Shown: positions 28,248-55,863 of the stretch, piece after piece
Numbering within the stretch: position 1 is the stretch's first letter
How the letters are laid out: the number at the start of each line of letters is the position of its first letter
DNA from: Escherichia coli
Lineage (GTDB): Bacteria; Pseudomonadota; Gammaproteobacteria; Enterobacterales; Enterobacteriaceae
Reading direction: 5' to 3' (one strand)
NCBI RefSeq assembly: GCF_022846255.1
Contig: NZ_AP025682.1
Length of the DNA stretch: 64,000 nucleotides
Translations under genes and position numbers: made by a program
Notes under the pieces: generated by a model
What the model was told of the DNA's origin: nothing
Seen by the model: only the letters and a program-made list of their open reading frames with translations
Database searches by the model: none

Positions 28248-35094
<6,847 letters not shown>

Positions 35095-46453: not shown

Positions 46454-49303
46454 TTGAAATACCTTGCTTCTTTTCGTACAACCCTGAAAGCCTCGCGCTA
46501 CATGTTCAGAGCATTGGCGTTAGTGCTCTGGCTGTTGATTGCTTTTTCATCCGTTTTTTACATCGTTAATGCGTTACATCAGCGAGAATCGGAAATTCGT
46601 CAGGAATTTAATCTGAGTTCCGATCAGGCTCAGCGCTTTATTCAACGCACCTCTGATGTGATGAAAGAGCTGAAGTACATAGCTGAAAATCGCTTATCGG
46701 CAGAAAACGGTGTGCTTTCCCCGCGTGGACGAGAAACGCAGACGGATGTGCCTGCGTTTGAACCGCTGTTTGCTGACTCTGATTGTTCCGCAATGAGTAA
46801 CACCTGGCGAGGTTCTCTGGAGTCATTGGCGTGGTTTATGCGCTACTGGCGCGATAATTTTTCTGCGGCTTACGATCTAAACCGGGTATTTTTAATCGGC
46901 AGCGATAACCTCTGCATGGCTAATTTCGGTCTGCGTGATATGCCAGTGGAACGCGATACCGCGTTAAAAGCTTTGCATGAACGCATTAATAAATATCGAA
47001 ATGCACCACAAGATGATAGTGGCAGTAACCTCTACTGGATCAGCGAAGGTCCGCGCCCTGGCGTCGGGTATTTTTACGCCTTGACGCCAGTTTATCTGGC
47101 GAACCGGTTGCAGGCGCTTTTGGGTGTCGAGCAAACCATCCGGATGGAGAACTTTTTCTTACCTGGTACGTTGCCGATGGGGGTTACCATTCTTGATGAA
47201 AATGGTCATACCCTGATTTCGCTTACCGGACCAGAAAGCAAAATTAAGGGCGATCCTCGCTGGATGCAGGAACGCTCCTGGTTTGGCTATACGGAAGGGT
47301 TCCGGGAGCTGGTGCTGAAGAAAAATCTGCCACCCTCATCGCTAAGCATCGTGTATTCGGTGCCGGTTGATAAGGTGCTGGAACGCATTCGCATGTTGAT
47401 CCTTAACGCAATTTTGCTGAATGTGCTTGCCGGAGCTGCATTGTTTACTCTCGCGCGGATGTACGAGCGGCGTATTTTCATTCCGGCGGAAAGCGACGCC
47501 TTGCGACTGGAAGAACATGAGCAGTTTAATCGCAAGATTGTCGCCTCCGCGCCAGTGGGTATCTGCATTTTGCGTACCGCTGATGGCGTCAATATTTTAA
47601 GTAACGAACTGGCGCATACCTATCTCAATATGCTTACGCATGAGGATCGCCAACGGCTGACACAAATTATCTGTGGGCAGCAGGTCAATTTTGTTGATGT
47701 CCTGACCAGCAACAATACCAATCTGCAAATCAGCTTCGTCCATTCGCGCTATCGTAATGAAAACGTGGCCATTTGTGTGCTTGTGGATGTTTCTTCGCGC
47801 GTGAAGATGGAAGAGTCGTTGCAGGAGATGGCACAAGCAGCGGAACAGGCGAGTCAGTCAAAATCGATGTTCCTTGCCACCGTCAGTCATGAGCTGCGAA
47901 CGCCGCTGTATGGCATTATCGGTAACCTGGATCTGTTGCAAACCAAAGAGTTACCGAAAGGCGTCGATCGTCTGGTGACGGCAATGAACAACTCTTCCAG
48001 CCTGTTGTTGAAAATTATCAGCGATATTCTCGATTTCTCGAAGATTGAATCGGAACAGTTGAAGATCGAACCGCGTGAGTTTTCACCGCGTGAAGTGATG
48101 AACCACATCACCGCCAACTATTTACCGCTGGTGGTACGCAAGCAGTTAGGCTTGTACTGCTTTATTGAACCGGATGTGCCAGTGGCCTTAAATGGCGACC
48201 CGATGCGTTTACAGCAGGTCATCTCCAACCTGTTGAGTAACGCCATAAAATTCACCGATACCGGCTGTATAGTTTTGCATGTTCGCGCTGATGGCGATTA
48301 TCTCTCTATCCGTGTTCGCGATACCGGCGTGGGGATTCCGGCGAAAGAAGTCGTGCGCTTGTTTGATCCCTTCTTCCAGGTCGGAACGGGCGTACAGCGA
48401 AACTTCCAGGGGACCGGTCTGGGTCTGGCGATTTGTGAAAAACTGATCAGCATGATGGACGGCGATATCTCGGTAGATTCAGAACCGGGAATGGGCAGCC
48501 AGTTTACCGTGCGTATTCCGTTGTACGGCGCTCAGTACCCGCAGAAAAAAGGCGTGGAAGGGTTGAGTGGTAAACGCTGCTGGCTGGCGGTCCGCAATGC
48601 GTCGCTCTGTCAGTTCCTGGAAACCAGTTTGCAGCGCAGCGGCATCGTCGTTACAACATACGAAGGGCAGGAACCGACTCCCGAAGATGTGTTAATCACT
48701 GACGAGGTAGTGAGCAAAAAATGGCAGGGTAGAGCGGTAGTGACCTTCTGTCGTCGCCATATTGGTATTCCGCTGGAGAAAGCGCCAGGGGAGTGGGTAC
48801 ACAGTGTGGCTGCCCCGCATGAGCTACCGGCATTGTTGGCGCGTATTTATTTGATCGAGATGGAGAGCGATGATCCTGCTAACGCTCTGCCGTCGACGGA
48901 CAAAGCGGTCAGCGATAACGACGATATGATGATTCTGGTCGTGGATGATCATCCGATTAACCGGCGTCTTCTGGCAGATCAGTTGGGATCGTTGGGCTAT
49001 CAATGTAAAACCGCGAATGATGGCGTCGATGCGCTTAATGTACTTAGCAAGAATCATATTGATATCGTGCTTAGCGACGTCAACATGCCAAATATGGATG
49101 GTTACCGCTTGACGCAACGCATTCGTCAGTTGGGACTGACGTTGCCGGTTATCGGAGTAACTGCTAATGCGTTGGCTGAAGAGAAGCAGCGGTGTCTGGA
49201 GTCCGGTATGGACAGCTGCCTGTCGAAGCCGGTAACGCTGGATGTGATAAAACAGACGCTAACGGTATATGCCGAGAGGGTCAGGAAATCGCGGGATTCG
49301 TAG
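46454..49303 (+). CDS. rcsC: Hybrid sensor kinase RcsC, 949 aa (TTG start) or 933 aa from ATG 46502
   Basis: HisKA/HATPase plus C-terminal receiver; the ORF-track start is TTG. Confidence 0.9.
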   Translation: MKYLASFRTTLKASRYMFRALALVLWLLIAFSSVFYIVNALHQRESEIRQEFNLSSDQAQRFIQRTSDVMKELKYIAENRLSAENGVLSPRGRETQTDVPAFEPLFADSDCSAMSNTWRGSLESLAWFMRYWRDNFSAAYDLNRVFLIGSDNLCMANFGLRDMPVERDTALKALHERINKYRNAPQDDSGSNLYWISEGPRPGVGYFYALTPVYLANRLQALLGVEQTIRMENFFLPGTLPMGVTILDENGHTLISLTGPESKIKGDPRWMQERSWFGYTEGFRELVLKKNLPPSSLSIVYSVPVDKVLERIRMLILNAILLNVLAGAALFTLARMYERRIFIPAESDALRLEEHEQFNRKIVASAPVGICILRTADGVNILSNELAHTYLNMLTHEDRQRLTQIICGQQVNFVDVLTSNNTNLQISFVHSRYRNENVAICVLVDVSSRVKMEESLQEMAQAAEQASQSKSMFLATVSHELRTPLYGIIGNLDLLQTKELPKGVDRLVTAMNNSSSLLLKIISDILDFSKIESEQLKIEPREFSPREVMNHITANYLPLVVRKQLGLYCFIEPDVPVALNGDPMRLQQVISNLLSNAIKFTDTGCIVLHVRADGDYLSIRVRDTGVGIPAKEVVRLFDPFFQVGTGVQRNFQGTGLGLAICEKLISMMDGDISVDSEPGMGSQFTVRIPLYGAQYPQKKGVEGLSGKRCWLAVRNASLCQFLETSLQRSGIVVTTYEGQEPTPEDVLITDEVVSKKWQGRAVVTFCRRHIGIPLEKAPGEWVHSVAAPHELPALLARIYLIEMESDDPANALPSTDKAVSDNDDMMILVVDDHPINRRLLADQLGSLGYQCKTANDGVDALNVLSKNHIDIVLSDVNMPNMDGYRLTQRIRQLGLTLPVIGVTANALAEEKQRCLESGMDSCLSKPVTLDVIKQTLTVYAERVRKSRDS

Positions 49304-49497
49304 GACGGATAAGGCGTTTACGCCGCATCTGGCATTCAGTGCAAATGCCAGATGCGACGCTGACGTGTCTTATCTGGCCTACTTTAATGTAATCTGTTGA
49401 AATAATGGGAATCGTAGGACGGATAAGGCGTTTACGCCGCATCCGGCAATCGGTGCAAATGCCAGATAAGACACTAACGCGTCTTATCTGGCCTACA
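49304..49497. repeat. REP/BIME cluster between convergent rcsC and rcsB
   Basis: Two copies of cgtaggacggataaggcgtttacgccgcatc (about 49297 and 49412) plus inverted partners ending cttatctggcctac. Confidence 0.8.
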
Positions 49498-49502
49498 GGT
49501 GA

Positions 49503-50153
49503 TTAGTCTTTATCTGCCGGACTTAACGTCACTGAAGAGAGATAATTCAGCAGAGCAATATCGTTCTCGACACCCAGCTTCATCATCGCAGATTTCTTCT
49601 GGCTACTGATGGTTTTGATACTGCGGTTCAGCTTTTTAGCGATCTCGGTCACCAGGAAACCTTCCGCAAACAGGCGTAGAACTTCACTCTCTTTTGGCGA
49701 GAGACGCTTGTCACCGTAACCACCAGCACTGATTTTTTCCAACAGGCGAGAAACGCTTTCCGGGGTAAATTTCTTCCCTTTCTGCAGCGCGGCGAGAGCT
49801 TTCGGCAGATCGGTCGGTGCACCTTGTTTCAGCACGATCCCTTCGATATCCAGATCCAATACCGCACTAAGAATCGCCGGGTTGTTGTTCATGGTCAGAA
49901 CAATGATCGACAGGCTTGGGAAATGGCGCTTGATGTACTTGATTAAGGTAATGCCATCGCCGTACTTATCGCCAGGCATGGAGAGATCGGTAATCAACAC
50001 ATGCGCATCCAGTTTCGGCAGGTTGTTGATCAGTGCTGTAGAGTCTTCAAATTCGCCGACAACATTCACCCACTCAATTTGCTCAAGTGATTTGCGAATA
50101 CCGAACAAGACTATCGGATGGTCATCGGCAATAATTACGTTCATATTGTTCAT
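49503..50153 (-). CDS. rcsB: Response regulator RcsB (LuxR/FixJ family), 216 aa
   Basis: Starts MNNMNVIIADDHPIVLFGIRKSL; ORF-track start 50198 is an extension. Confidence 0.9.
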   Translation of the reverse strand: MNNMNVIIADDHPIVLFGIRKSLEQIEWVNVVGEFEDSTALINNLPKLDAHVLITDLSMPGDKYGDGITLIKYIKRHFPSLSIIVLTMNNNPAILSAVLDLDIEGIVLKQGAPTDLPKALAALQKGKKFTPESVSRLLEKISAGGYGDKRLSPKESEVLRLFAEGFLVTEIAKKLNRSIKTISSQKKSAMMKLGVENDIALLNYLSSVTLSPADKD

Positions 50154-50169
50154 GTAATAGGCTACCTTG

Positions 50170-52842
50170 CTACAGCAAGCTCTTGACATAACTGTCAATG
50201 TCGCTGATGTATTTTTCTATTCCTGGAACATCCTTCTCACGAATCAGATGTTCCAGCGTTTCACATAACTGCTTGCCGGGTACCAGATTTAGCATGGCAA
50301 ATACGCCTTTAAGACGATGAGCCGTTTGGGCTAACGCAGCAAAGTCACTGGTTGCTGCTTCAGTATACAGCCTCTTAACATCATCCGGTACTGTGTCTAC
50401 AAAGAGCGCATAATAGCCGCTGGCATGGAGTTGCGCATTTTCATCTCCGCCCAGAGGCGATTCTGTCACCTCTTCCTGCGCCAGTTGCACTTCAATTAAT
50501 TGTAAGACCGCTTCCTGCATAGCGTTGCTCATATTGAAATTGACGCACAATTGACCAGGCCCAATTTCCCGTACGCCAGACTCATCATCGCTTAAAAGCA
50601 AGCCAGAGGCAGTAAGATTAGACGGATTATCCGTTAAAAAGATATCATAATCTTGACTAATTAATCTTTCATCGGGTGTGATACAGGTTGCACCCCAATT
50701 TTCTAACTGGCGAGTGACAATATTCCGAATTTCTGCCGAAGTAACATCCACCATTACGCAGACATCATCCAGTAATCGCTCTTCTTCCTCTTCAACTTCC
50801 GGGTCAGCTGCGAGCATTTTGATATGCACAGAGTAGCGTGTACCGAGCCCATCCCGCGTTTTGATGTTTAAATGACCGCCCAGTTTACGCGCCAGTTGAT
50901 CGCTCAGCCAGAATGCCAGCGGGTCCGCCTTGCCATAGCGATCGTTTTGGGTCTGGTTGATAAACGGGAAGTGCAAATTATCCATTTCATGAATACTTAC
51001 GCCTTCTCCCGTGTCCAGAATGCGGAACGTCAGGCGGTCTTCGGAGGACTCATCCTGATCAACCTCAAGGGTGATTTTTCCCAATTGCGTTGAGGTCACG
51101 GCATATTGCATCAGTAGTAGCAAAATACGTCGTAAGGCATCGCGATCGCCGCGGCGCATATCGTGTGCTTTCAGATGATTGTTAATCAGCAGTTGCAGAC
51201 CTTTACGCTTGATGGCAGGCAACACTGAAGGCACAACTTCATCAATTAAATCCTGCACGGAGAACAGCTCCGTCTCACTTTTCCAGCTATCGTCCGCAAG
51301 CATGTTCGCTAACTGTATTTCATCGACCAGCCGCACCAGCACATCTGCCTGATTCGCCAGTTGTTTGCCTTCCGGGGCGTTGAGTTTAGCCGCGCTCTCC
51401 GCCAGGGACTGTGCGGGTTCTTTCAGCGCATCGCCAATGTTTTTCATAAAGGTCATCCGCCCCTGCTGGTTTTTCTCATACAGACGCTGCGCCTGCTTGA
51501 GTTTCTTGTTTACCAGCACTTCGCGATCCTGATCGCGAATAATGAAAATTTGTGTGCGCGGCGCAACCTGGCTGCGGAACATGCGGATCTCATACAGCTC
51601 GTTATTGATCGTCGCCTGAATAATCCCCTGATGCTGTTCCGCCATGGTGGTGATGTTTTGCAGATTCAAATGCGGCAGCAAATGATCGGCAATTTTGTTA
51701 CTTATGACTGTGCGGTTCGATTCCTGATCGTGAACCAGCAGGCCGAGCGGCAGCAGTGAGACTATCTCTTCATTAATTGCCCGTAAAATGCGCAATTCGT
51801 TATTGACCGCCGTGCTGGGGACGCTTTCTGTACTGCGGCTGGAGAAATGGCGGAATGTGGTATAGCCAAATAACGCCAGCGCCAGCAAACCGATGTTCAG
51901 CAGCAGTGGCAGCAGAATGTTTTGCAACGTATCCAGCAGTAAGGTGCCGTAAGGAACCTGCCAGACCAGGCGCATATCGGTAGAGTTGAGTGCCGAGGAG
52001 ATTTCAATCTTCGTACTGTTAAAGTGGATACTGACGCTATCCGTCCCTTCTTTCTCATTTTCATTGTTTCCCGTTGCCGTCGCGTCTGGCTCAAGGCGGA
52101 AACTGTCCAGCGGCATACCCGGTGGGATCAAATCATTAATCGGCAGATCAAAAGCCACGACCGTTGCCAGATGTCCCGGCTGGTTGAACGTGGTACGCAA
52201 GGTAAAGTAATGACCGTTCTGCCAGGCCAGGCGGCGCATGTTAGAAAAACTTTCGCGTTCATCGAGGGCGTTGGCCTGTTGCAACATCTCTGCACGACGT
52301 GAATCAACAATGTCGCTGACGGTCGATTCTTTAAATCCGGAGGTGAGATCTTTGAGGGGCAGGGTTGAGATCAGCACCAGACTGTTATCCTGACCATTCA
52401 GGTAATACATCGACCACGGTACATTTTCTGCGCCCCACAATGTGTCCAGATAGGTGGACATCCGTTGAGTCATCTCAAGCGTTGAGTTGTCGTGAGAGCC
52501 AAAGATTAACGCTTCCGTTTTGCGGCGTGGTTTCTCCAGATAGTAGACATCCTGTTTCAGGCGCGTCTCTTGTAAACCTTCGCCGGAGGAGGGGGAGGTT
52601 GTCGCGGCAATGTTGTCGTAGATCTGCCAGGTCACGTAACGCCAGGTATCGACGCGCTTTTGGATAGCGTGGGTAATGTCGACAATCTGGTAACTTTTAT
52701 CTTTCAGCCAGGCGTTAACGGCGCTTTGTACCATTACACCCATCGTCACCAGTAACACAATGATCAACAGTAAAAAGAAGCGGGTAATGCTCCCCGGTAG
52801 GAGTGAAAAGCGGGTCGTGGCCGTTGTCTCTTTCTGACGCAT
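50170..52842 (-). CDS. rcsD: Phosphotransfer intermediate RcsD (YojN), 890 aa
   Basis: Protein recognised; C-terminal HPt domain. Confidence 0.9.
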   Translation of the reverse strand: MRQKETTATTRFSLLPGSITRFFLLLIIVLLVTMGVMVQSAVNAWLKDKSYQIVDITHAIQKRVDTWRYVTWQIYDNIAATTSPSSGEGLQETRLKQDVYYLEKPRRKTEALIFGSHDNSTLEMTQRMSTYLDTLWGAENVPWSMYYLNGQDNSLVLISTLPLKDLTSGFKESTVSDIVDSRRAEMLQQANALDERESFSNMRRLAWQNGHYFTLRTTFNQPGHLATVVAFDLPINDLIPPGMPLDSFRLEPDATATGNNENEKEGTDSVSIHFNSTKIEISSALNSTDMRLVWQVPYGTLLLDTLQNILLPLLLNIGLLALALFGYTTFRHFSSRSTESVPSTAVNNELRILRAINEEIVSLLPLGLLVHDQESNRTVISNKIADHLLPHLNLQNITTMAEQHQGIIQATINNELYEIRMFRSQVAPRTQIFIIRDQDREVLVNKKLKQAQRLYEKNQQGRMTFMKNIGDALKEPAQSLAESAAKLNAPEGKQLANQADVLVRLVDEIQLANMLADDSWKSETELFSVQDLIDEVVPSVLPAIKRKGLQLLINNHLKAHDMRRGDRDALRRILLLLMQYAVTSTQLGKITLEVDQDESSEDRLTFRILDTGEGVSIHEMDNLHFPFINQTQNDRYGKADPLAFWLSDQLARKLGGHLNIKTRDGLGTRYSVHIKMLAADPEVEEEEERLLDDVCVMVDVTSAEIRNIVTRQLENWGATCITPDERLISQDYDIFLTDNPSNLTASGLLLSDDESGVREIGPGQLCVNFNMSNAMQEAVLQLIEVQLAQEEVTESPLGGDENAQLHASGYYALFVDTVPDDVKRLYTEAATSDFAALAQTAHRLKGVFAMLNLVPGKQLCETLEHLIREKDVPGIEKYISDIDSYVKSLL

Positions 52843-53153
52843 TCGTGTTTATGACCTGTTAAAACTTCGCGAAGTGATAGGGCAGTATAAAGGGTACAGT
52901 GTGAAATTCCAGACTCTTACCTGATTGATGATTCTCTATTCTCCAGTGATATTTATCATCCTGCATTGGGGGAAATAGATGTACAAGCGCCATTTTGCTG
53001 TACAAATAACCTACAAAAAGCCTAACGAAATTAATTGCAAATAAACGAAGATTGCTGGAAATTATGCTGATGTTAATTATTTGTGAAATAGTTAACAAGC
53101 GTTATAGTTTTTCTGTGGTAGCACAGAATAATGAAAAGTGTGTAAAGAAGGGT

Positions 53154-53246
53154 AAAAAAAACCGGATGCGAGGCATCCGGTTGAAATAGGGGTAAACAGA
53201 CATTCAGAAATGAATGACGGTAATAAATAAAGTTAATGATGATAGC
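53154..53246 (-). ncRNA. micF: MicF antisense sRNA (93 nt), repressor of ompF translation
   Basis: Minus strand reads GCTATCATCATTAACTTTATTTATTACCGTCATTCATTTCTGAATGTCTGTTTACCCCTATTTCAACCGGATGCCTCGCATCCGGTTTTTTTT, ending in a hairpin plus U8 terminator; divergent from ompC. Confidence 0.9.
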
Positions 53247-53401
53247 GGGAGATATTCTAGTTGCGAGTGAAGGTTTTGTTTTGACATTCAGTGCTGTCAA
53301 ATACTTAAGAATAAGTTATTGATTTTAACCTTGAATTATTATTGCTTGATGTTAGGTGCTTATTTCGCCATTCCGCAATAATCTTAAAAAGTTCCCTTAT
53401 A

Positions 53402-53461
53402 TTTACATTTTGAAACATCTATAGCGATAAATGAAACATCTTAAAAGTTTTAGTATCATAT
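53402..53461 (+). promoter_or_regulatory. OmpR-binding sites C1-C2-C3 of the ompC promoter
   Basis: tttacattttgaaacatcta / tagcgataaatgaaacatct / taaaagttttagtatcatat match the known three tandem 20-bp OmpR boxes. Confidence 0.75.
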
Positions 53462-53580
53462 TCGTGTTGGATTATTCTGCATTTTTGGGGAGAATGGACT
53501 TGCCGACTGATTAATGAGGGTTAATCAGTATGCAGTGGCATAAAAAAGCAAATAAAGGCATATAACAGAGGGTTAATAAC

Positions 53581-54696
53581 ATGAAAGTTAAAGTACTGTC
53601 CCTCCTGGTCCCAGCTCTGCTGGTAGCAGGCGCAGCAAACGCTGCTGAAATTTACAACAAAGACGGCAACAAATTAGATCTGTACGGTAAAGTTGACGGC
53701 CTGCACTATTTCTCCGATAACGACTCTAAAGATGGCGACAAGACCTACATGCGTCTTGGCTTCAAAGGTGAAACTCAGGTTACTGATCAACTGACCGGTT
53801 ATGGTCAGTGGGAATATCAGATTCAAGGTAACGAACCTGAAAGTGACAATAGTTCCTGGACCCGTGTGGCATTCGCTGGTCTGAAATTCCAGGACGTTGG
53901 TTCTTTTGACTATGGTCGTAACTACGGCGTTGTTTATGACGTAACATCCTGGACCGACGTGCTGCCAGAATTCGGTGGTGACACCTACAGCTCTGACAAC
54001 TTCATGCAGCAGCGTGGTAACGGCTTCGCGACCTACCGTAACACCGACTTCTTCGGTCTGGTTGATGGCCTGAACTTTGCTGTTCAGTACCAGGGTAAAA
54101 ACGGTAGCCCGTCTGGCGAAGGTATGACTGGTGTGACCAACAATGGTCGTGATGTTCTGGAACAGAACGGTGACGGCGTTGGTGGTTCTATCACTTATGA
54201 CATCGGTGAAGGCTTCAGCTTCGGTGGTGCAATCTCCAGCTCCAAACGTACCGCAGAGCAGAACAATTATGGCATCGGTAACGGCGATCGTGCAGAAACC
54301 TACACTGGTGGTCTGAAATACGACGCTAACAATGTATACCTGGCTGCTCAGTACACCCAGACTTACAACGCAACTCTGGCTGGTGATTTAGGTTGGGCGA
54401 ACAAAGCTCAGAACTTTGAAGTGGTTGCACAGTACCAGTTCGACTTCGGTCTGCGTCCTTCTGTAGCTTACCTGCAGTCCAAAGGTAAAAACCTGAATGC
54501 CAACATCGCTGGTCGTACTTACGACGACGAAGATCTGCTGAAATATGTTGATGTTGGTGCGACCTACTACTTCAACAAAAACATGTCCACCTACGTTGAC
54601 TACAAAATCAACCTGCTGGACGACAACCAGTTCACCCGCGCTGCTGGCATCAACACTGATAACATCGTAGCTCTGGGTCTGGTTTACCAGTTCTAA
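53581..54696 (+). CDS. ompC: Outer membrane porin OmpC, 371 aa (non-K-12 allele)
   Basis: Signal peptide [21 protein letters not shown]; ends LVYQF; differs from my recollection of K-12 OmpC (367 aa) in loop segments. Confidence 0.9.
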
Positions 54697-54807: not shown

Positions 54808-55863
54808 ATGGAAATAAGCTTTACCCGCGTGGCACTGCTGGCTGCCGCGCTCTTCTTTGTTGGTTGCGATCAAAAACCACAACCCGCCAAAACCCACGCT
54901 ACTGAAGTTACCGTTCTTGAAGGCAAAACCATGGGTACCTTCTGGCGTGCCAGCATTCCGGGCATTGACGCCAAACGCAGTGCCGAACTTAAAGAAAAGA
55001 TTCAGACCCAGCTGGACGCCGACGATCAGCTGCTTTCGACCTATAAAAAAGATTCCGCGCTGATGCGCTTTAACGACTCGCAAAGTTTGTCGCCGTGGCC
55101 AGTAAGTGAAGCGATGGCCGATATCGTCACCACCTCGCTACGCATTGGCGCGAAGACCGATGGCGCGATGGATATAACCGTCGGGCCGCTGGTGAATCTG
55201 TGGGGCTTTGGCCCGGAACAACAGCCGGTTCAAATTCCGAGCCAGGAACAGATCGATGCGATGAAAGCCAAAACCGGCTTACAGCACCTGACGGTCATTA
55301 ATCAGTCGCATCAGCAATATCTGCAAAAAAACCTGCCGGATTTATATGTCGATCTCTCCACTGTCGGCGAAGGCTATGCGGCGGATCATCTGGCACGCTT
55401 GATGGAGCAGGAAGGGATTTCCCGCTATCTGGTGTCGGTGGGCGGCGCGCTGAACAGCCGTGGCATGAACGGTGAAGGCCAGCCGTGGCGGGTAGCGATT
55501 CAAAAACCAACCGATAAAGAAAACGCGGTTCAGGCTGTGGTGGATATCAACGGTCATGGCATTAGCACCTCTGGCAGCTACCGTAACTATTACGAACTGG
55601 ACGGCAAACGTCTTTCTCATGTTATCGATCCGCAAACCGGGCGTCCTATCGAACACAATCTGGTATCCGTGACGGTGATTGCCCCGACGGCGCTGGAAGC
55701 CGATGCCTGGGATACTGGCTTAATGGTACTGGGGCCGGAGAAAGCCAAAGAGGTTGTTCGCCGGGAAGGACTGGCGGTCTACATGATCACCAAAGAGGGC
55801 GATAATTTTAAAGCCTGGATGTCGCCGCAGTTTAAAAGCTTCCTTATCAGCGAAAAAAATTAA
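54808..55863 (+). CDS. apbE: FAD:protein FMN transferase ApbE (lipoprotein), 351 aa
   Basis: Lipobox LFFVGC near the N-terminus. Confidence 0.85.
   Translation: MEISFTRVALLAAALFFVGCDQKPQPAKTHATEVTVLEGKTMGTFWRASIPGIDAKRSAELKEKIQTQLDADDQLLSTYKKDSALMRFNDSQSLSPWPVSEAMADIVTTSLRIGAKTDGAMDITVGPLVNLWGFGPEQQPVQIPSQEQIDAMKAKTGLQHLTVINQSHQQYLQKNLPDLYVDLSTVGEGYAADHLARLMEQEGISRYLVSVGGALNSRGMNGEGQPWRVAIQKPTDKENAVQAVVDINGHGISTSGSYRNYYELDGKRLSHVIDPQTGRPIEHNLVSVTVIAPTALEADAWDTGLMVLGPEKAKEVVRREGLAVYMITKEGDNFKAWMSPQFKSFLISEKN

Follow-up and report, generated by a model that had tools for sequence, protein, structure and literature searches.

Does a strain of Escherichia coli that carries an unusual allele of the porin gene ompC also carry unusual control of that gene and of micF, the regulatory RNA gene beside it? 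The question is raised by a 64-kb stretch of E. coli DNA (64,000 nucleotides of contig NZ_AP025682.1, assembly GCF_022846255.1; hereafter the window), and in particular by the interval 53154-53461, whose left edge is exactly the 3' end of micF and whose right edge leaves out the last base of the third OmpR box of ompC. Here, we have located the cis elements of this interval and compared them with those of K-12, folded the RNA, predicted its duplex with ompF and counted how often each variant occurs among 5,426 complete E. coli genomes. We conclude with high confidence that the stretch is the standard E. coli micF-ompC divergent control region, and that its DNA elements appear to be in working order. 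The locus is already known biology and does not depart from textbook knowledge. Our judgement concerns elements acting in cis; ompF, ompR/envZ, the mar/sox/rob loci (marRAB, soxRS and rob) and hfq lie outside the window.

The order of the locus, rcsD - micF - ompC - apbE, is that of K-12, with micF placed between ompC and rcsD and divergent from ompC; the window as a whole runs in reverse of the K-12 map (Table 1). Over the 758 bp that comprise the rcsD-ompC intergenic region and the first ompC codons, comparison with K-12 MG1655 gives 10 substitutions and no indels, and gene order, orientation and intergenic length are all kept. Within 53154-53461, 304 of 308 bases are identical (98.7%), the four exceptions being the bases entered as variants 1 to 3 in Table 1. 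Substitutions relative to K-12 are densest in the intergenic region at 53023-53068, between the micF terminator and the start of rcsD, where five fall within 46 bp. Elsewhere in the window, the Rfam model naRNA4 (RF02564, REP-type repeats) matched twice on the + strand, at 49303-49379 and 49417-49493 (70.0 and 73.7 bits); the pair lies just upstream of an rcsB-sized ORF (49503-50198), in the position of the rcsC/rcsB convergence gap of related genomes. The other 45 kb, when scanned with Rfam, gave no matches.

Table 1. Features of the micF-ompC locus, in window coordinates; identity refers to K-12.
Feature	Position	Strand	Remarks
rcsD	50170-52842	-	ORF, 890 aa
micF	53154-53246	-	93 nt; Rfam RF00033 and mapping of K-12 b4439
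MicF Rho-independent terminator	53154-53182	-	10-bp stem, 3-nt loop, U8 tail; from fold and terminator scan
Variant 1	53165	-	MicF nt 82: C here, U in K-12
Internal MicF hairpin, nt 26-51	53196-53221	-	MFE and centroid folds, Rfam consensus structure
MicF nt 1-34, ompF-pairing region	53213-53246	-	predicted duplex; identical
MicF 13-nt 5' seed GCUAUCAUCAUUA	53234-53246	-	identical; unpaired in fold
Variant 2	53252	-	micF promoter -6: T on the micF strand, A in K-12; just downstream of TAGAAT
micF -10 hexamer TAGAAT (putative)	53254-53259	-	-13 to -8; read from sequence; identical
Marbox (putative MarA/SoxS/Rob site) ACAGCACTGAATGTCAAAAC	53278-53297	-	-51 to -32 of micF; pattern match; identical
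Variant 3	53399-53400	+	AT for K-12 GC; ompC -101/-100, 2-3 bp upstream of C1
OmpR box C1 TTTACATTTTGAAACATCTA	53402-53421	+	identical; inside the C1 oligonucleotide of PMC2586830
OmpR box C2 AGCGATAAATGAAACATCTT	53423-53442	+	identical
OmpR box C3 AAAAGTTTTAGTATCATATT	53443-53462	+	identical; abuts the -35 region
ompC core promoter (putative)	53467-53495	+	-35 TTGGAT 53467-72, 17-bp spacer, -10 GAGAAT 53490-95; identical
ompC 5' untranslated leader	53500-53580	+	~81 nt; identical
ompC	53581-54696	+	ORF, 371 aa, rare allele
apbE/ftp gene	54808-55863	+	ORF

The RNA gene itself is complete. The Rfam MicF model RF00033 matched the - strand over all of its 94 positions and scored 116.8 bits, the gathering score being 79 (E 2.8e-18); its match spans 53154-53247, and the 93 nt annotated as b4439 in K-12 map by pairwise alignment to the micF interval of Table 1. 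Between the window and b4439 there is a single substitution, and the first 81 nt are the same. Both hairpins and the U tail of the Rfam consensus are present; one weakly paired position of the first hairpin is non-canonical in the window, as it is in K-12. We would like to point out that, among the RefSeq E. coli records listed, those of most genomes have no annotation under the micF match. Some genomes, e.g. O55:H7 TB182A, match the control region only partly, and 52 of the 5,426 complete genomes have no micF match of any kind.

The predicted fold of the window MicF contains the two expected hairpins (z = -5.4). An independent terminator scan placed 10 pairs followed by a T run at 53182-53160, the sole terminator-like site in the intergenic region, where 0.2 would be expected. 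At the other end of the RNA, the first 13 nt of MicF constitute the seed, which is enough to regulate ompF and lrp (PMC11676804). When nt 1-34 of MicF were paired with the K-12 ompF leader by RNAduplex, the predicted energy was -27.4 kcal/mol, as against -14.4 +/- 2.9 for shuffled MicF, and the predicted duplex covers positions 94-121 of the ompF stretch used, including the Shine-Dalgarno sequence and the AUG. In 5396 of 5419 E. coli genomes the K-12 ompF leader is present with no more than one mismatch; since it is nearly invariant in the species, the source strain almost certainly has the target as well.

On the micF promoter, the evidence comes from the arrangement of motifs. From its spacing to the annotated +1, we infer that the hexamer TAGAAT would serve as the micF -10. 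Class II micF promoters are activated by MarA, SoxS, Rob or RamA. The 20-bp marbox consensus, which is reportedly AYnGCACnnWnnRYYAAAYn as given by Martin et al. in 1999, is fitted by ACAGCACTGAATGTCAAAAC at all specified positions but position 19. As far as the sequence goes, this candidate marbox overlaps the micF -35 position and is centred near -41, in a class II layout, and it carries the motif CACT-7N-AAA. Such a motif centred near -41 defines the class II character of the micF promoter (PMC8811837). In the Klebsiella RamA-micF complex of the same study, the activator site likewise lies near -41, overlaps the -35 and has CACT-7N-AAA, as in the window; that structure used the K. pneumoniae promoter, whereas the site in the window is known from its sequence only.

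On the ompC side, the published architecture consists of three tandem 20-bp OmpR sites with two 10-bp half-sites each, of which C1 is filled first by OmpR-P, and C2-C3 later, at high OmpR-P (PMC3050692). The same sites serve ompC and micF alike across a 253-bp interval (PMC1489923), and MicF belongs to both the OmpR and the SoxS regulons. The window has three tandem 20-bp OmpR sites from about -98 to -38 of the putative ompC start, with the end of C3 lying 4 bp ahead of the TTGGAT of the -35. C1 and C2 have in common the 10-mer core TGAAACATCT, 21 bp apart, which is found nowhere else in the 64 kb (0.19 occurrences expected). Of 5371 genomes, 5286 have the stretch from C1 to the core promoter (53401-53500) with no more than one mismatch. 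We also scanned the window with a loose OmpR-type pattern, GNNACNNNNNGNNAC, and rejected it as badly chosen: it gave 39 matches with 27 expected, none of them in C1-C3.

Because of the 253-bp micF-ompC interval (PMC1489923), we place the probable start of ompC transcription near 53500, and the hexamers listed in Table 1 would then be the ompC -35 and -10. A sigma-70 consensus scan of 52843-53600 missed the promoters of micF and ompC alike; its two promoter-like matches were fewer than in shuffled sequence. Such a miss is to be expected for activator-dependent promoters, so the scan is uninformative and lends them no independent support. The MicC target presumably sits within the ompC leader; as the leader is the same as in K-12, this target looks unchanged too.

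What, then, do the four differing bases amount to? All four lie outside the seed, the marbox, the OmpR boxes and the core-promoter hexamers, and the seed, the ompF-pairing region, the marbox, C1-C3, the ompC -35 and -10, the leader and the signal-peptide codons are all as in K-12. Variant 1 lies in the terminator stem, where G70 pairs with C82 in the window and with U82, as G·U, in K-12. The predicted energy of the whole RNA is -21.4 kcal/mol for the window and -18.5 kcal/mol for K-12, with the same structure, and the terminator of the window MicF is thus predicted to be stronger than that of K-12. At this variable terminator position the Rfam RF00033 consensus has C, as in the window. The exact 93-nt micF of the window occurs in 3231 of 5374 genomes and the K-12 allele in 2030 of 5374; the window carries the majority form of E. 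coli micF, and K-12 the minority G·U form. An exact 61-mer with variant 2 was found in 935 of 5366 genomes (17%). Variant 3 is much rarer: the exact 61-mer with the AT dinucleotide occurs in 27 of 5364 genomes (about 0.5%), most genomes being mismatched at both bases and of the K-12 type.

These comparisons bear on what a first-pass annotation had said of the interval. It had recognised a 93-nt micF with its terminator, and three tandem 20-bp OmpR boxes of ompC; the Rfam score and the independently found terminator bear out the former, and the base-for-base identity of C1-C3 with K-12 the latter. Its description of the region as "fully conserved" does not hold literally, as 4 of 308 bases differ from K-12, but it does hold for the known motifs, none of which is hit. 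It had also proposed aligning the region to K-12 to look for mismatches that disrupt the MicF seed or terminator. The alignment revealed none: the seed is identical, and the sole terminator change is from G·U to G-C.

How the elements may act together can be outlined from what is established for this locus, which is our source for protein binding, transcription starts, Hfq dependence and physiological output. On the - strand, a weak promoter with TAGAAT as its -10, overlapped by a class II marbox, would drive the 93-nt MicF. The unstructured 5' end of MicF, with its 13-nt seed and pairing extending to about nt 34, would bind the ompF mRNA at its ribosome-binding site and start codon, and MicF together with Hfq, for which the U-tailed 3' end would be the binding site, would block OmpF synthesis. 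On the + strand, OmpR-P bound at C1-C3 beside a weak -35 would switch on ompC when osmolarity is high, and the literature credits the OmpR-P sites with a stimulation of micF as well. The net result would be that OmpC gains over OmpF in the porin balance when the cell is under osmotic, oxidative or drug stress. The first-pass annotation had held that the osmoregulatory and Mar/Sox/Rob-linked control of this balance is intact. For the cis elements, which are unchanged or improved, we agree; as a statement about control it goes too far, since control also needs ompF, ompR/envZ, marA/soxS/rob and hfq, which are outside the window.

The coding sequence behind this standard control region is far from standard. 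OmpC of the window agrees with K-12 OmpC at 333 of 373 positions (89% amino-acid identity over the full length). Residues 1-23 are identical to those of K-12, and both the signal peptide and the C-terminal Phe are present, the protein ending in ...LVYQF. The differences, together with 4 indels, cluster in discrete segments of the mature protein, which look like surface-loop regions. At the DNA level, none of the 5,426 complete E. coli genomes has exactly this ompC; A25 (monkey) and CP090611 (pig) come closest, at 99.6%, followed by E2348/69 records at 98.4%, and 5215 genomes are only 80-90% identical to it. Differences from K-12 number 0-5 per 100 bp from rcsD through 53629, rise to 8-27 from about 53630 to 54580 and fall to 0-4 thereafter, so that the promoter-side boundary of divergence lies just past the signal peptide. 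The allele looks mosaic. In a neighbouring part of the window, at 30000-53000, even the closest complete E. coli genomes reach just 98.0-98.9% identity, and coverage stands at 94% for most genomes; the source strain is evidently absent from the set. An IS insertion suspected there was ruled out: the IS4 of the best-covering genome is absent from the window, and a 216-aa yfaT-like ORF at 29906-30556 is intact.

Comparison of the window with three other genomes shows how the control region and the allele are connected. No difference separates the window from A25, E2348/69 and CFSAN061771 between 53027 and about 53880, a stretch that includes the rare AT; deeper in ompC, the four diverge from one another. 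In A25, micF and the control region are those of the window, and a few substitutions lie near the ompC 3' end; in EPEC E2348/69, micF and the control region are again the same, and the ompC substitutions are in 53881-54080. CP090611, too, has the micF and control region of the window, with the rare AT, next to its 99.6% identical ompC. The identity among the four genomes indicates that a single haplotype block, which travels as a unit, takes in micF, the control region and the initial ~300 bp of this ompC allele. It had been said of the control region that it is intact despite the allelic ompC. The allele is indeed rare, but the control region is not independent of it, the two being joined in this block through the 5' part of ompC.

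It is then conceivable that the control region and the 5' part of ompC arrived in one import, and that the control region looks conserved as donor and recipient were nearly identical there, species diversity in this region being low. We regard this as about an even chance. The four-genome identity spans micF, the control region and the beginning of ompC, and the rare AT marker lies inside the shared block, both of which argue for a joint import; the case depends on three other genomes, by direct comparison. Moreover, an import would be a matter of history, not of function, and is compatible with a standard control region in working order. We argue that the control region is conserved because species diversity there is almost nil, rather than through any demonstrable sparing from exchange.

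A different possibility is that the control region works but has been quantitatively re-tuned relative to K-12, by the AT dinucleotide and/or the -6 variant, perhaps in co-adaptation with the rare OmpC allele. The rarity of AT would fit such a change, as would its presence on the same haplotype as the ompC 5' part in all three carriers examined, and the dinucleotide lies inside the flank of an oligonucleotide that was used experimentally as the C1 site (PMC2586830). Nevertheless, AT is outside the 20-bp C1 box, and every base of C1-C3 and of the core promoter is unchanged; its linkage to the allele is explained equally well by hitch-hiking in one recombination tract; and the -6 variant, being common, is probably neutral. 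We therefore consider re-tuning improbable, and less probable still the specific version in which AT alters OmpR-P loading at C1, and hence ompC and micF output, and was kept with a rare surface-loop OmpC allele. Most likely, the AT dinucleotide is a neutral passenger on the ompC haplotype. Decay of micF or of the ompC promoter, with loss of function, was considered as about 1% of complete genomes are without a micF match, but nothing was found for it, and a pseudogene or decayed copy can practically be dismissed in view of an Rfam match over the full length, a seed identical to that of K-12, a stronger predicted terminator, the intact ompC ORF (371 aa, with signal peptide and ...LVYQF) and the absence of indels from the intergenic region.

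The reading we prefer is thus that of a standard E. coli micF-ompC control region, and it has a bearing on the biology of the strain. At this locus a near-invariant control region gives way sharply to a hypervariable coding region, and the locus also reminds us that most RefSeq records of E. coli leave micF unannotated. Here, the standard regulatory wiring in cis is kept by a strain whose OmpC surface allele is unusual. Since this wiring is kept, differences at the locus in the response to phage, colicin, antibody or antibiotic would more likely come from the exposed loops of the porin than from the control of its expression.
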